Source of the DNA: an uncultured Anaerolineaceae bacterium | Lineage (GTDB): Bacteria; Chloroflexota; Anaerolineae; Anaerolineales; Anaerolineaceae | Assembly: GCA_964590535.1 (NCBI GenBank) | Contig: CAZPWL010000001.1 | Coordinates: 1 to 43,474, forward strand | Direction: 5' to 3' | Length of the DNA: 43,474 bases | Position numbers: made by a program | In this document: positions 18,001-36,000 of the stretch, piece after piece | Layout: the number at the start of each line of letters is the position of its first letter | How positions within the stretch are numbered: position 1 is the first letter of the stretch

Positions 18001-21000
18001 AAATCATTGCTTATGAATCCGGGGTAGCCGACACAGTGGACCCATTAGCCGGGTCTTACCTGATTGAATACCTGACCGACCAGATCGAGGAGAAAGCGGA
18101 TGAATACATCCGCAAGATCGACGAGCTGGGCGGCGCGCTGAAAGCAATTGAGCACGGCTATGTCTCTAACGAGATACAGGATGCCGCCTTTAGCGCCCAG
18201 CGCAGGCTGGAAACAGGCGAGGACGTGGTGGTGGGCGTCAACAAATTCCAGCAGCACGAAACGATTGCCCTGGAATCTTTGCGCATCAACCCGGTCATCG
18301 AATCGCAACAGCGGGAACGCCTGGCACGCATACGCCAGAGCCGGGATCCGCAGCGCACAGCCGAGCTGCTGGGCCATCTGGAGACCAGCGCCAGGGGTAC
18401 AGATAACCTGATGCCGCTCTTTATCGAATGTGTCGAGAATAAACTGACCCTGGGCGAAATCTGCAACCTCCTGCGCGGGGTCTGGGGGGAATACCGCGCC
18501 CCGAATTTCATCTAAAAGGAACCCATGAAACCGATCAAAATCAACCATGTTGCCATTGTCGTCAAGGATATCGACGCGTCACTCGATTTCTGGGTGAAAG
18601 CCTTTGGCTTACATCTGGATCATATTGAGGATGTGCCCTCCCAAGCTTCCAAGGTGGCCTTTTTACCTCTGGGAGAAAGCGAAGTGGAACTTGTTCAGCC
18701 AACTACCGCGGACAGCGGTATGGCAGCCTACCTGGAAAAGCGCGGCGAAGGCATGCACCACCTGTGCATTGAAGTCGAGGATATTGACGCGGCGTTGGAG
18801 CATCTGAAAGCGCTGGATGTGCGCCTGATTAATTCCGAGCCGCAAGTGCTGCCCGGGAGGAAAATGGCGTTTATCCATCCCAAAGCAGCCAACGGTGTAT
18901 TAATCGAGCTTTATCAGCTGACAGAATAGCACGGGAAGTTTCGCGTCTCACCTGCGAAGCAAAAGAAAGAATAATTCCTTAGCGAGAAGAAGCATCAGCA
19001 GCAAAGGAGAGAAAATGCTGATTACAAACGGAAAAATCGTCATTTGGGGGGAGCATCCGGAGATTATTGAGGGGAAAGCGCTGTATGTGCAGGATGGGCG
19101 GATTGAAAGCATCGCCGATGCCAGCACGTTAATCCAAGCCCATCCGGACGCCGAAATCCTGGATGCTGCCGGTCAGTTGGTAATGGCTGGCAATATTTGC
19201 GCGCACACACACTTCTACGGGGCGTTTTCGCGCGGGATGGCAATCCCGGGCGAGCCGCCAGCCGATTTCTCCGCCATCCTGAGCAGCCTGTGGTGGAAAC
19301 TGGACAAAGCACTGGACGAAGAGGGCGTGCGTTATTCCGCGCTTGTGTGCCTGGTGGATGCGATTAAGTACGGAACTACGACGCTTTTTGACCACCACGC
19401 TTCCCCAAATTGCATCGACGGTTCGTTGGATATCATCGCGGAAACGGTCAGTCAATCCGGGCTGCGCGCTTCGCTGTGTTACGAGGTGACCGACCGGGAC
19501 GGCGAGGAGCGCGCGCTGGCTGGAATCCGCGAAAACGCCCGTTTTATCGATGAAGTCGCCAAAGGCACGGAAAGTCCATTAATAAAAGCGCATTTTGGCC
19601 TTCACGCCAGCCTGACGGTCTCTGCACAAACGCTTGAACGCTGCCTGGCCGCCAACCAGCACCGAGCCGGCTTCCACGTGCATGCTGCAGAGGGTCTGGT
19701 TGACCAGCAGGACAGCCTGCGCAAATATGGGCAGCGTGTGATTGAACGCTTCCATCAGCAAGGCGTCTTGGGCGAGAAAAGCATTCTGGCGCACGGTGTG
19801 CACGCCAACCCGCAGGAGCTTGACTTGCTGGCGGAAACGAAAACATGGCTTTCCCATCAGCCGCGCTCAAACATGAATAACGCAGTCGGAGTCGCGCCAG
19901 TGTTGGACATGCTGCGGCGCGGGGTCAACGTCGTGCTGGGCAACGACGGTTTTTCCAATGCCATGTGGGAGGAGTGGAAAGCCGCTTACTTCATTCAGAA
20001 AGACCACGGGGCAGACCCGCGCCTGATGAATGGGTATGAGGTCATGAAGATAGCCGTTGACAATAATTCCAGGCTGGCATCCCAAACTTACAATGGTTTG
20101 CGCGTAGGCATTATTGAGCCCGGCGCGGCAGCCGACCTGATTCTGGTAGATTACCACCCGATTACCCCGCTTACTGCCGGAAACCTGCCCTGGCATATCC
20201 TGTTTGGCTTTCGCGAGGGGATGGTGACCAGCACGATTGTGGCAGGGAAAATATTGATGCGAGATAGAAAGCTGCTTTGTCTGGACGAAGCAGAAATCGC
20301 GGCAAAAGCACGCGAAGCAGCACTGCGCACCTGGAAAAAAATTCAGTAGAAAGAGAAATACGATGACATACACAATTGGCATTATTGGCGGAACAGGAAA
20401 AGAAGGCAAAGGCCTGGCGTACCGATGGGCAAAGTCAGGGCACAAGGTTTTGATAGGCTCGCGCTCACAAGAAAAAGCTTTGGCGGCAGCCGCTGACCTC
20501 AAGGCTCTGCTGCCCGCTCAGGCGGATGTTTGGGGATTAAGTAACGCAGAAGCCGTGAGCCAATGCGATATCGCGGTTCTGACCGTGCCTTTCGCAGCCC
20601 ACGCTGAGACCCTGCAAGGGCTAAGAGAAGTCCTGCAAGGGAAAATCATGATTGATGTCGCCGTGCCTCTGAATCCTGCCAAGGTGACCAGGGTTTCTAT
20701 GCCTCCCGAAGGCTCCGCAGCCCAGCAAGCTCAGAAAATTCTCGGCGAAGGCGTGCAGGTGGTTGCGGCTTTTCAGAATATAGCCTATGAGCATCTCTTG
20801 AACGACGAAATTGTTGCCTGCGACGTCCTGGTATGCGGCACGGGCAAGGAAGCCCGACGAACGGTGATTGGTCTGGTTCAGGACGCGGGTCTGACAGGCT
20901 GGGATGCTGGTGCGTTAGAAAATGCAGTGGTTGTGGAAGGGCTCACCTCCGTGCTTATCGGTCTCAACATCCAACACAAGGTCAGCTCTGCAGGCATCCG

Positions 21001-33000: not shown

Positions 33001-36000
33001 CTGCACGCGGCAGGTATTGACCGGCCGGTCCGGATTGTATGGAGCCGGGAAGAATCGATCATCGGACATCACAAACGCCACTATTACGTTTTGCGAGCCA
33101 AGTGGGGCGCGGATGCCGATGGGAGAATTTTGGCTGCACAGTGCGTGATGGTCTCTGACGGCGGTGCGTACGTGTATACTTCGCCAAAAGTGTTGGGAAA
33201 CAGCACCTTGCTGGCCAGCGGCCCGTATGGTATTCCGAACGTGAGTACCGACGCGTACTCCGTTTATACCAATAACATCCCCGCCGGGGCATTCCGCGGA
33301 TTTGGCGGTCCCCAGGCAGCATTTATGGCTGAAATGCAGGTGGATGCGTTGGCTGAAGCGCTGGGGATGGACCCGGTGGAATTCCGCATGCGGAATCTGT
33401 TCAAGGAGGGCTCAATACAGTCTATGGGGCAAGCCATCCCCAAGGGTGTGAGCATCCGCGAAGTCGTCCGGGCATGCGCGTTGGAGGCTGGTTGGCAGGA
33501 AGGACCCGGCGGCTGGCAACGACCAGCTGTAGGACCTAGCCCGGATCCCGCTGTGAGGCGCGGGCTCGGTTTTGCCTGTGGGTATAAAAACATTGGCTTT
33601 TCATTTGGGTATCAGGAGAACTGCGCTGCGAAAGTTGTGCTGTTCGGAGAAACCGAGGTGGAAAAAGCCCGGCTTTTCCACGCCGGCGCTGAGGTTGGTC
33701 AGGGCGCGCACACAGTCTTTGCCCAGTTTACGGCAGAAGCTTTGGGGCTGCCTATCGAAAAGATTGAGCTTTGCCTGTCCGATACGGCTACGTCCGGGAA
33801 CGCTGGCAGCGTGTCCGCATCCCGGATGACTTTTATGGCTGGAAATTCTATCCTCGGAGCAGTGAGAGCTGCCCGGGAACGCTGGGAGGCTGGAGAACGG
33901 CCTGCTGTAGGTGAATTTACTTACCTTGCCCCCAAAACAAGCGCGCTGGACAAAAAAGACGGACACTGTTATCCGAACTTCGCGTATGGTTACGTCGCGG
34001 AAGCTGTGCTGGCTGACGTGAATACCATCACAGGCGAGGTGCGGCTTCGCAAGGTTATCTGCGCGGATGATGTCGGGAAGGCGATCAACCCAGCGCTGGT
34101 GGAAGGGCAAATAGAGGGCGCGGTGGTCCAGGCGGCCGGGTACGCGCTGATGGAAAATTTTATAAGCAAAGACGGCATTACGCGCACCAAAGAACTATCA
34201 ACTTACATGATTCCTACCGCAGTCGATATTCCTGACCAGGTGCAAAGCATCATCCTGGAAATTCCAGATCCAATTGGTCCGTACGGCGCGCGCGGAATGG
34301 GTGAAATGCCATATCTGCCCTTTGTACCCGCGGTCGTCGGCGCAGTTTATCAGGCTACAGGCGTACTTTTAAATCGTTTTCCCCTCACTGCGGAAGTGAT
34401 TCTCCGCGGATTGGGGAAAATCTAGAAGCTGTGGCTGAATTGCTGGATAGAGTCACCGGATTACCCGCGATTGCCGGGATTATCCTGGCGGCTGGTGGCT
34501 CCAGCCGCTTTGGCTCGCCAAAACAGTTGCGCGCCTGGGGGCACGGCAATTGCCTGGAAGCCTGCATCCGGACAGCAGAGATTGCTGGGCTTGACCCGCT
34601 TGTGGTTGTGCTGGGCGAAAGCTTTGTGGAAATCCAGGCACGCACGCAGTTTGGTCGCGCTTTGGTGGCGCGTAATCCGGATTGGGAGAAGGGACAGAGC
34701 ACATCGCTGAAAGCCGGGATTGCCTGTTTACCCGAGGAAAGTTTTGGAGCGGTATTCTTGTTGGCAGACCAGCCGCAGCTCTCCGTTCAACTCGTTATCG
34801 CGGTCAAGGAGCTGGCATGGCAGAAGAATGCGGTCATCCTTCCAATCATCGGTGATCGCCGGGCAAACCCGGTTTTCTTTCCACAAAGGGCTTTTCCGCG
34901 CCTGATGGAACTGCAGGGCGACCAGGGCGGTAGAGCAGTTTTGGGGGAATTCCCGACCGTGCAGCTGCCATGGCTGGATGACGACATGGCGCTGGATATC
35001 GATACGCCTGAGGACTACGACCGGCTGTGGCGCAAATTCTTTGCAAAACCTTATGATTCTTTTTAATGTATAATCCACGCAGCACTGGAAACTAGCGCCA
35101 GGCCTGGCAATTGCCAGGTGACGAGGTCGGGGGTTCCTTTCCGCGAGGAAAGGTTAACCAATTTTCATTGGGAAAATCGAAAGATCGGCGGATGCCCCCC
35201 GGATGAGTTCTCATCCGATTTCCTGTGTCTGGAACAATGCATGGACACTCAAGCCTTGCGCTTGAGCGTCTCCGATACTGGAAGGAGTACTAAGTATGTG
35301 CGGAATTGTGGCTTATATCGGAGGGCAGAATGCCACGCCGATTATCGTCAACGGCTTGAAGAAACTCGAATACCGCGGGTATGATTCCGCGGGCGTAGCC
35401 GTGCTGCAAAATGGAAAAATTGAAGTGCGGCGGGACGCTGGCAAGATTGCGCGGCTCGAAGCGCTGATTGCTGAAAAGCCTGTTGAGGGCACGGTTGGCA
35501 TTGGGCATACCCGCTGGGCAACACACGGCGCACCAAACCAGCAAAACGCCCATCCCCACCTGAGCTCAAACGGTGAAATTGTCATCGTGCATAACGGGAT
35601 CGTGGAAAATTATCTCAGCTTGCGCGACGAACTGCTGGCTGAGGGAGCGGTGTTTCATTCTGAAACCGATACCGAAACGATCGTTTATCTGATCGAACGC
35701 TATTACGCAGTCACGCAGGACCTTGCCAAAGCAGTGGAGCTGACGATGAAACGCGTGAAGGGGGCGCACGGTATTGTCGTCATGGCTTCCCGCGAACCTG
35801 ACCGGCTTGTGGCAGCGCGCCTGGGGAATGCCGGCGGAGTTGCCATAGGCAAGGGGAGCAATGAGATGTTTATTGCCAGCGACCTGCCTGCGATTGTTGA
35901 ACACACCCGGGAAATCACTTTTCTTGAGAGCGGCCAGATGGCAATCATCAGGCGCGGCAGCCTGGTTGTTCAAACCCTGGATGGAGCGAAAGTTCAGCCG

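Follow-up and report, generated by a model that had tools for sequence, protein, structure and literature searches.

Why should the genes that build and recharge the redox cofactor F420 stand in the middle of a run of molybdenum (Mo) enzyme genes? The question is raised by a stretch of DNA of 43,474 nucleotides (nt) from an uncultured Anaerolineaceae bacterium of the Chloroflexota (contig CAZPWL010000001.1 of assembly GCA_964590535.1; the whole stretch is called the window below). Here an array at 19015-35066 brings together an SsnA-family amidohydrolase, four F420 genes, a luciferase-like (LLM) oxidoreductase and two enzymes of the xanthine dehydrogenase (XDH) family with their maturation factors. 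The array probably codes for an F420-dependent form of the anaerobic reductive uric acid (2,8-dioxopurine) pathway, of which it would cover the upper half, a reading that we hold with moderate confidence. The cluster is real and conserved, hangs together in function, and is best filed as a predicted F420-dependent variant of that pathway.

A reductive uric acid pathway and its Chloroflexota variant

The reductive uric acid pathway is a discovery of 2025 and was solved in gut Proteobacteria and Firmicutes alone, by two studies that established the functions of the Escherichia coli and Clostridium homologues (Li et al., PMC12507026; Liu et al., preprint 10.1101/2025.04.24.650524). The E. coli route runs through 2,8-dioxopurine, uric acid being reduced and opened by XdhD-YgfM, YgfK and SsnA (Li et al. 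2025, PMC12507026). Specifically, XdhD-YgfM (DOPDH in Clostridium) converts urate to 2,8-dioxopurine, which is reduced by YgfK (UacX in C. difficile) and, together with SsnA, turned into ureidomethyl-hydantoin; with YgfK alone the product is undetectable, and coupling to SsnA is needed (PMC12507026; 10.1101/2025.04.24.650524). Li et al. (PMC12507026) treat SsnA as a robust marker of uricolytic clusters, and they noted Chloroflexota neighbourhoods of SsnA that have neither YgfK nor UacX and contain an F420-type LLM protein (PF00296) instead.

The window is an instance of the putative F420-dependent variant that Li et al. noted from SSN and genome-neighbourhood analysis (PMC12507026; Fig. 3c and Discussion), with SsnA and a PF00296 protein and no YgfK or UacX. 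The sequence-only reading of this DNA had called the arrangement undescribed, a claim that is out of date because of this prior remark. Coverage of the Chloroflexota variant in that paper consists of one sentence and a coloured network. In its main text and one supplementary file (text only) no mention was found of the fno-cofE-cofD-cofC cassette, of the pair of Mo enzymes with maturation genes, of the missing lower pathway or of the displacement by a reductase resembling dihydropyrimidine dehydrogenase (DPD), and the supplementary text mentions neither F420 nor Chloroflexota. The variant has been flagged in print and is uncharacterised; what is added here is the embedded F420 cassette, figures for its conservation, the genomic contexts of LLM outgroups and evidence on the displacement of reductases.

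Gene content and order of the array

Gene identities were taken from Pfam and NCBIfam profile searches, with equivalog cut-offs as the pass mark, and the proteins of the E. coli cluster were compared directly with those of the window (with tblastn for YgfK and others). The array consists of the following features; aa stands for amino acids and FAD for flavin adenine dinucleotide.

19015..20349, + strand: ssnA, SsnA-family amidohydrolase (NF005540, 525 bits against a cut-off of 444)
20363..21022, + strand: npdG/fno, NADPH-dependent F420 reductase (TIGR01915, 206 bits against 150)
21024..21803, + strand: cofE, F420-0:gamma-glutamyl ligase (TIGR01916, 260 bits against 181)
21803..22780, + strand: cofD, 2-phospho-L-lactate transferase (TIGR01819, 293 bits against 257)
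22777..23376, + strand: cofC, guanylyltransferase of F420 biosynthesis (TIGR03552, 139 bits against 105)
23414..24418, + strand: Mer-like LLM oxidoreductase (PF00296, 213 bits)
24415..24876, + strand: hotdog-fold (4HBT) thioesterase-like protein (PF03061; TIGR00369, 37.5 against 36.6)
24869..25654, + strand: YgfM-like FAD-binding subunit (PF00941, FAD_binding_5, 43.9 bits against 27)
25651..28560, + strand: XdhD-like fusion of two [2Fe-2S] domains and an Mo-cofactor subunit, 969 aa (domain profiles; match to E. coli XdhD)
28573..29949, + strand: CBS-domain family II (DHH/DHHA2) inorganic pyrophosphatase (Pfam DHH, CBS and DHHA2; NF011443, 322 bits)
29949..30737, + strand: XdhC-family factor for insertion or maturation of the Mo cofactor (PF02625, PF13478)
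30749..32155, + strand: fusion of FAD and two [2Fe-2S] domains, subunit of the second XDH-type enzyme (FAD_binding_5, CO_deh_flav_C, Fer2, Fer2_2)
32158..34425, + strand: PucD/XdhA-like Mo subunit of the second enzyme, interrupted (TIGR03196, pucD, 438 bits on the C-terminal part)
32638..32640, + strand: in-frame TAG within the Mo subunit gene (translation of the reading frame against orthologues)
34431..35066, + strand: MocA-like Mo-cofactor cytidylyltransferase (PF12804; TIGR03310, 118 bits, below its cut-off of 186)

The reading-frame coordinates bear out the earlier description of 14 same-strand genes with junctions of -8 to +37 nt. When cofE is started at the ATG at 21024, the start given by the sequence itself and by 259-aa gene calls on independent contigs, the distances between successive genes come to 13, 1, -1, -4, 37, -4, -8, -4, 12, -1, 11, 2 and 5 nt, six of the 13 being overlaps. 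Since the TAG splits one Mo subunit, the array holds 15 open reading frames and not 14 intact genes. The names first given to the genes were likewise essentially right by profiles, with three qualifications: the second Mo subunit is interrupted, the hotdog protein does not reach the PaaI-specific model, and the names 'ygfM-like' and 'mocA' rest on Pfam-level matches that lie under equivalog cut-offs.

The array most likely forms one operon-like unit and is presumably transcribed as such. Consensus scans for promoters and terminators gave no signal over background, and an Rfam scan of the window for purine, xanthine or Mo-cofactor riboswitches had the glmS ribozyme as its sole match (RF00234 at 35083-35242, + strand, 43.2 bits against a gathering score of 37). 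This ribozyme lies directly 5′ of glmS (35296-37137) and marks the downstream (3′) boundary of the array. Outside the array, the genes of the window are housekeeping genes.

The in-frame TAG does not belong to the system as such. The codon at 32638-32640 is GAG (Glu) in the closest genome (our locus L001; L-numbers below denote related loci and contigs, P-numbers outlying LLM proteins), the position is a sense codon in every one of about 50 orthologues, and an independent contig with an identical 160-aa N-terminus (L091) reads 'cgg ga' where the window has 'cgg tag'. The TAG must accordingly be either a nonsense mutation confined to this strain or a mistake of the assembly. Recoding (pyrrolysine or readthrough) and a natural split of the gene were considered and rejected on the same grounds.

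Predicted route through the array

With the gene identities, the architecture and the order-wide synteny (see below) established, the genes can be arranged into a route in which every substrate is a prediction for this organism. The PucD/XdhA-like XDH (the FAD-FeS fusion with its Mo subunit) would convert hypoxanthine or xanthine to urate, and the XdhD-like FeS-Mo fusion, with the YgfM-like flavoprotein, would reductively remove the C6 oxygen of urate to give 2,8-dioxopurine. The Mer-like LLM protein would then pass a hydride from F420H2 to 2,8-dioxopurine, in place of the Fe-S flavoenzymes YgfK and UacX; the most plausible target is C6 of the C6=N1 imine, which would agree with Mer-type chemistry and with the CH2 group that the published product, ureidomethyl-hydantoin, contains. 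SsnA would hydrolyse the reduced six-membered ring to ureidomethyl-hydantoin, thereby pulling the unfavourable reduction forward. The other genes would have supporting roles: Fno/NpdG would recharge F420 from NADPH, CofC, CofD and CofE would build F420 from FO made or acquired elsewhere, XdhC and MocA would mature the cytosine-dinucleotide Mo cofactor, and the pyrophosphatase may pull the pyrophosphate-releasing reactions of CofC and MocA.

A purine-type N-heterocycle pathway in which Mo enzymes, a reduction with F420H2 and ring hydrolysis by SsnA act together, with the F420 genes wired into it, had already been proposed from the sequence. That core idea is strengthened by the synteny across the order and by the 2025 biochemistry of the E. 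coli homologues; the part that did not survive is the Mo-dependent hydroxylation, as the XdhD-type step is a reductive dehydroxylation (urate to 2,8-dioxopurine).

Comparison with the E. coli and clostridial systems

In the E. coli cluster sequence that was fetched and examined, ygfK, ssnA, ygfM and xdhD are adjacent, as the sequence-only reading had stated for ssnA, ygfM and xdhD. The window shares with this cluster (i) an SsnA orthologue, 39% identical over its full length, (ii) an XdhD-like fusion of the same length and architecture, with the equivalent of Glu606, (iii) a YgfM-like FAD subunit gene immediately upstream of the xdhD-like gene, its stop overlapping the xdhD-like start, and (iv) a MocA, an XdhC-like factor resembling the N-terminal half of YqeB, and a separate XdhA-type XDH. 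The window SsnA passes the equivalog cut-offs not only of NF005540 but also of TIGR03314 (509 against 455.5 bits), and its metal ligands (HxH, His, His, Asp) are all conserved. Identity to the E. coli proteins is 36% for the XdhC-like protein (against the N-terminal half of YqeB) and 26% for the MocA-like protein.

The two also differ. YgfK is missing: it has no tblastn match in the window, and no DHO_dh or Pyr_redox_2 protein occurs in the array, whereas a Mer-like LLM gene, fno and cofC/D/E sit between ssnA and ygfM. The window also lacks hyuA, ygeW, ygeX, ygeY, yqeA, yqeC, selD and a transporter. No match to selD, to a YqeB of the C-terminal type or to yqeC was found in the window, and the M20-family protein at 40123-41322 is CpsA-like and not YgeY-like. 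The earlier statement that FO synthase, selD and ygfK lie outside the window agrees with these searches.

The clostridial variant (UacX and UacY in C. difficile, the selenium-dependent DOPDH XdhAC in C. sporogenes) follows the same pathway logic, and its use of a non-orthologous reductase at dearomatisation indicates that this step can be replaced. UacX is a DHO_dh-family protein thought to depend on ferredoxin, and the window has no such protein; the clostridial DOPDH has no FAD subunit and needs SelD and YqeB/C, whereas the window has no selenium genes. Two Anaerolineales loci (L043 and L069) do carry a DPD/PreA-like fusion beside a second SsnA type, and such a fusion is seen in their subclade only.

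Conservation of the array in Anaerolineales

A scan with the LLM protein, at one genome per species, gave at least 591 relatives, and the best 80 loci were fetched; their titles name Chloroflexota, Chloroflexia, Anaerolineae or members of Anaerolineae, with two exceptions labelled Bacteroidota and Syntrophothermus. Gene counts refer to the 44 loci flanked by 10 kb on either side. The F420 cassette lies beside these genes in other genomes too. Near the LLM gene and on its strand, ssnA occurs in 42 of the 44; npdG and cofE are found in 42 each, cofC in 43 and cofD in 36. These counts do not refute the sequence-only reading, which had named adjacency in this genome alone as a refuting outcome. 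The second XDH is present in 34 loci, the ygfM-like gene in 31 (median identity 32%), the xdhD-like gene in 30, xdhC in 27, the pyrophosphatase in 23 and the hotdog gene in 22, and 36/44 have one or more XDH-family Mo enzymes downstream of the LLM gene. The order of the array recurs in dozens of species-level genomes, which makes it more than chance. Several architectures keep ssnA, the F420 genes and the LLM gene linked: the type of the window, with both Mo enzymes; a Pelolinea type without ygfM and xdhD; one that lacks Mo enzymes in the 10 kb downstream; and one in which ssnA stands directly 5′ of the LLM gene.

Such synteny could also be historical. In that case npdG-cofEDC-LLM would be a general F420 module, the LLM protein an unrelated housekeeping enzyme, and the shared order a result of slow gene-order change within Anaerolineales. 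The 80 loci all belong to one order and were chosen for the similarity of their LLM proteins; the upstream mcm and epimerase genes, with no obvious functional link, are also syntenic in the closest 13-14 loci; a Mo enzyme is missing within 10 kb downstream of the LLM gene in six of the 42 full loci that carry ssnA; and the LLM protein has a median identity of 81% against 32-69% for every other array gene in the same loci, as a housekeeping enzyme might, part of this gap coming from the selection of loci by LLM. Set against this, mcm and epimerase are kept only in those nearest loci and glmS lies downstream in none of the 44, so that the flanks are lost or changed beyond the closest relatives while ssnA, the F420 genes and the LLM gene stay together. 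Furthermore, stop and start codons overlap throughout the array, SsnA still accompanies the module where it has been replaced and relocated (the architecture with a second SsnA type, below), and independent, distant LLM relatives adjoin SsnA-like amidohydrolases, XDH and a hydantoinase. A purely historical adjacency is accordingly judged quite unlikely.

Evidence for displacement of one reductase by another comes from a subclade of five loci (L041, L043, L069, L075 and L080) where an 833-aa fusion and a second SsnA type (NF005540, 558 bits) have been inserted immediately ahead of the LLM gene. The fusion, made up of a GltD-like module (Fer4_20 and Pyr_redox_2) and a PreA/DHO_dh-like module with two 4Fe-4S motifs, lies between cofC and the second SsnA type and is by its domain make-up a DPD-type reductase of the YgfK/UacX kind. 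Its sites are as follows.

L043, 5606-8107: DPD-like fusion
L069, 4684-7173: DPD-like fusion
L041, 8156-8506: DPD-like fusion
L075, 6023-8530: DPD-like fusion

Two of the loci have an intact DPD-like reductase, one has a remnant, one a fragmented copy and one none at all, while SsnA and the LLM protein are intact in all five. Redundancy between the LLM protein and the DPD-like reductase would give rise to such a pattern, but five loci are a small sample and the one fragmented case may reflect long-read errors.

The LLM enzyme

By homology, the LLM protein belongs with the F420-dependent enzymes, and its use of F420 is inferred from this and from the adjacent cofC/D/E and fno genes. Every one of its 16 best NCBIfam matches is an F420-type family, led by Mer (185 bits), and the first family dependent on flavin mononucleotide (FMN) follows at 34 bits; among structures in the PDB it matches Mer with 132 bits, FGD with 57, Adf with 43 and the FMN-dependent SsuD with 35. 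Among relatives that have been characterised and whose structure is solved, the closest is thus Mer, the F420-dependent reductase of 5,10-methylene-tetrahydromethanopterin (H4MPT; PDB 8qq8, 1z69, 1ezw and 1f07). The two share the TIM-barrel LLM fold and fall into the F420-dependent group, and the LLM protein is predicted, like Mer, to deliver a hydride to an N-C=N type carbon.

The nearness to Mer invites the alternative that the LLM protein is a true methylene-H4MPT or methylene-folate reductase of C1 metabolism, or else an FMN-dependent monooxygenase, so that either the substrate class or F420 would be wrong. Besides Mer being the best match in both NCBIfam and the PDB, public annotations point in this direction, naming the protein 5,10-methylenetetrahydromethanopterin reductase or 'flavin-dependent'. 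Yet both Mer equivalog models are well under their cut-offs (185 against 276 bits and 170 against 349), the host is a bacterium without H4MPT or other C1 genes nearby, and the LLM gene is instead accompanied by those for SsnA and XDH-family enzymes. FMN-type families reach 35 bits at most, and cofC/D/E and fno are adjacent in 42-43 of the 44 genomes (cofD itself in 36) as well as in distant relatives. A role in C1 metabolism was rejected on the Mer scores and the gene neighbourhood, and this alternative as a whole appears very improbable.

Relatives from outside the Anaerolineales clade of LLM proteins offer a view that does not depend on Anaerolineales synteny. The LLM protein is at least 78% identical in the best 80 of at least 591 genome matches, and the Anaerolineales clade is tight and distinct, its nearest full-length outsiders being 40-48% identical in a search of 1.84 billion representative proteins. 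A search for homologous proteins had returned only relatives at least 85% identical, and no outgroup, and it was the representative search, with 274 representative clusters at E <= 1e-30, that supplied the outgroups; a contig look-up with the LLM sequence of the window itself found no record. The neighbourhoods of seven outsiders were looked up, of which five were informative. P0122, on a 1.9-kb contig, gave no DNA, and for P0126 the sole neighbour seen was an MFS transporter. In the informative cases the LLM gene (i) overlaps, stop to start, with a TRZ/ATZ-type amidohydrolase (P0123, 46% identical), (ii) lies between HyuA-like and SsnA-like proteins (P0124, 45%), (iii) stands among GntR, an SsnA-like amidohydrolase, three XDH subunits, a D-hydantoinase above its cut-off and an M20 hydrolase (P0130, 45%, 21 contigs), (iv) follows Fno-CofE-nitroreductase-CofD-CofC on the 3′ side, with XdhC downstream and an 8-oxoguanine deaminase upstream (P0129, 42%), or (v) lies 3′ of CofC (P0121, 48%). 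These contexts link the wider LLM clade to cyclic amidohydrolases and purine enzymes as well as to F420 genes.

A more specific proposal can be put forward only tentatively and has a low probability. The Mer-like LLM clade may be an F420H2-dependent reductase of 2,8-dioxopurine (or a related N-heterocycle), with F420 made in Anaerolineales from imported FO, possibly leaked by nearby methanogens, and mainly serving this one enzyme; the array would then be a self-contained 'cofactor plus client' module, in which the YgfM-like protein may also draw electrons from F420H2, and F420 would gain its first primary-catabolic role in the breakdown of purines.

As a separate observation, two distant relatives carry, directly 3′ of the LLM gene, a protein of about 820 aa without a Pfam or NCBIfam match (L093 1891-4356 and L102 11002-13458). 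It is followed in both by a Metallophos phosphoesterase, with XdhC in between in L102.

The molybdenum enzymes and the choice of substrate

The best E. coli match of the XdhD-like fusion is XdhD (35% identity over 997 columns, 558 bits), ahead of XdhA at 448 bits. Its Glu607 aligns with Glu606 of E. coli XdhD, and the residue is Glu in 42 of 43 orthologues. Glu606 has been proposed to orient urate and to act as a specificity determinant (Li et al. 2025, PMC12507026). Among the proteins of the E. coli cluster, the YgfM-like protein matches YgfM only (24% identity, E = 1e-8). The second enzyme has the make-up of the XDH family, namely FAD, two [2Fe-2S] clusters and an Mo subunit. Its FAD-FeS fusion corresponds to E. 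coli XdhB and XdhC (29% and 46% identity), and its Mo subunit has XdhA as best E. coli match (30%, 292 bits) and carries the XDH-type motifs GGREDM, FRGFGGPQ and GEMP, with the catalytic Glu and the xanthine-binding Glu and Arg. It fits a genuine xanthine dehydrogenase.

The same logic of Mo enzyme, F420H2-dependent reduction and amidohydrolase could be applied to another N-heterocycle, such as 8-oxoguanine, hypoxanthine, a pyrimidine, nicotinate or a pterin, in which case neither urate nor 2,8-dioxopurine would be an intermediate. Genes of lower urate breakdown are indeed absent from the window and from the 80 loci, the XdhD-like protein scores under the XdhD model and has Arg where E. coli has Gln, and the distant LLM relatives pair with SsnA-like amidohydrolases that are not SsnA, with a dihydropyrimidinase or with an 8-oxoguanine deaminase, so that the clade may span several substrates. 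What speaks for urate is that SsnA, the marker of uricolytic clusters according to Li et al. (PMC12507026), lies over its equivalog cut-off, that the Glu606 equivalent is kept in nearly all orthologues, and that a PucD-type XDH with canonical xanthine-binding motifs stands in the same array. A different heterocycle is therefore regarded as unlikely.

A further assignment was prompted by 1rm6 as best PDB match and would make the hotdog, ygfM-like and xdhD-like genes a 4-hydroxybenzoyl-CoA reductase system. It was rejected because the NCBIfam models XdhA and XdhD outscore HcrA and because the hotdog gene is missing in half of the loci; no E. coli-type XdhA or XdhD structure is among the PDB matches.

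Weighing the urate reading

A number of results weigh against the urate reading. The XdhD-like protein shares only 35% identity with E. coli XdhD, and its 658 bits with TIGR03313 fall short of the cut-off, 1102. It keeps all eight [2Fe-2S] ligand cysteines (25651-26200), whereas E. coli XdhD (L081 26317-29187) has zero cysteines in its N-terminal 'Fe-S binding' domain, and its residue at the position equivalent to bovine Arg880 is Arg, against Gln in E. coli XdhD (an equivalence read from the motif). HyuA, YgeW/UacY, YgeY, YgeX and YqeA are found neither in the window nor within about 10 kb in any of the 80 loci, and no purine or urate transporter is present in the window or in those loci. The LLM protein lies below every curated subfamily cut-off, and in some loci it co-occurs with the DPD-like reductase, where it could have a different job. 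The ssnA loci without a downstream Mo enzyme indicate that the ssnA/F420/LLM unit can exist apart from the Mo genes. Finally, as the loci were picked by LLM similarity from one order, the counts and the conservation of the LLM protein are partly shaped by that choice, the synteny could largely reflect shared ancestry within the order, and the roles given to the Chloroflexota proteins are extrapolated from homology, architecture and synteny.

F420 genes and the supply of the cofactor

CofC, CofD, CofE and NpdG/Fno are all above their NCBIfam equivalog cut-offs. Bacterial F420 biosynthesis operons contain fbiD/cofC, fbiA/cofD, fbiB/cofE and fno (Grinter and Greening 2021, PMC8498797), and all four functions are present here. 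The window differs from such operons in that its F420 genes sit inside a predicted catabolic operon, next to a single client enzyme, with no FO synthase nearby and without the C-terminal nitroreductase domain of FbiB, CofE standing alone. No FO synthase (CofG/CofH or FbiC) was found in the window, where the sole radical-SAM protein is MiaB/RimO-like, and no further reading frame with a CxxxCxxC radical-SAM motif occurs in the 80 related loci. The literature searched gave nothing specific to Anaerolineae on F420 biosynthesis or on FO synthase.

The selenium trait and the F420 route both vary within the order. YqeB (TIGR03309, 322 bits against 220) lies in the cluster, downstream of the Mo subunit, in nine of 44 relatives and YqeC in three to four (for example L023 19870-20682 and L066 14781-15383), which suggests that the selenium-cofactor trait is linked to the cluster there and not in the lineage of the window. 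A nitroreductase resembling the FbiB C-terminus is likewise inserted in the F420 cassette of nine of the 44.

Other insertions into the F420 cassette were also seen in relatives and, like the nitroreductase, are absent from the window: a 2H-phosphoesterase-like gene (14/44 loci), a PPOX-class F420-dependent oxidoreductase (TIGR03618; 9/44) and, in 7 of the 80 loci, a small protein that weakly matches inorganic pyrophosphatase. Example loci for these insertions are L031 7852-8391, L027 7171-7569 and 7517-8188, and L069 1508-1873. Beside cofC, two seemingly unrelated pyrophosphatase-type genes recur.

Implications

If the F420-dependent urate reading holds, it would (i) give F420 a new physiological role, the literature searched having yielded no purine-catabolic one beyond the remark of Li et al. 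2025, and the review of Grinter and Greening 2021 (PMC8498797) listing no purine-related role, (ii) represent a third, non-orthologous solution for a thermodynamically difficult dearomatisation step, and (iii) provide a function for a gene cluster found in hundreds of Anaerolineales genomes, implicating the order in purine and nitrogen turnover. Anaerolineales dominate anaerobic digesters and many sediments. The reading also yields a testable enzyme hypothesis, namely that the LLM protein, SsnA and F420H2 act together on 2,8-dioxopurine.

Minor observations

Between the FAD-FeS and Mo subunit genes, 14 of the 44 loci have a predicted membrane protein of 123 aa without a family match (for example L067 13384-13755), which is absent from the window. 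Elsewhere in the window, two tandem genes for FmrO-family 16S rRNA methyltransferases, of the aminoglycoside-resistance type, lie at 7099-8741 on the - strand, among genes for tRNA and rRNA modification.

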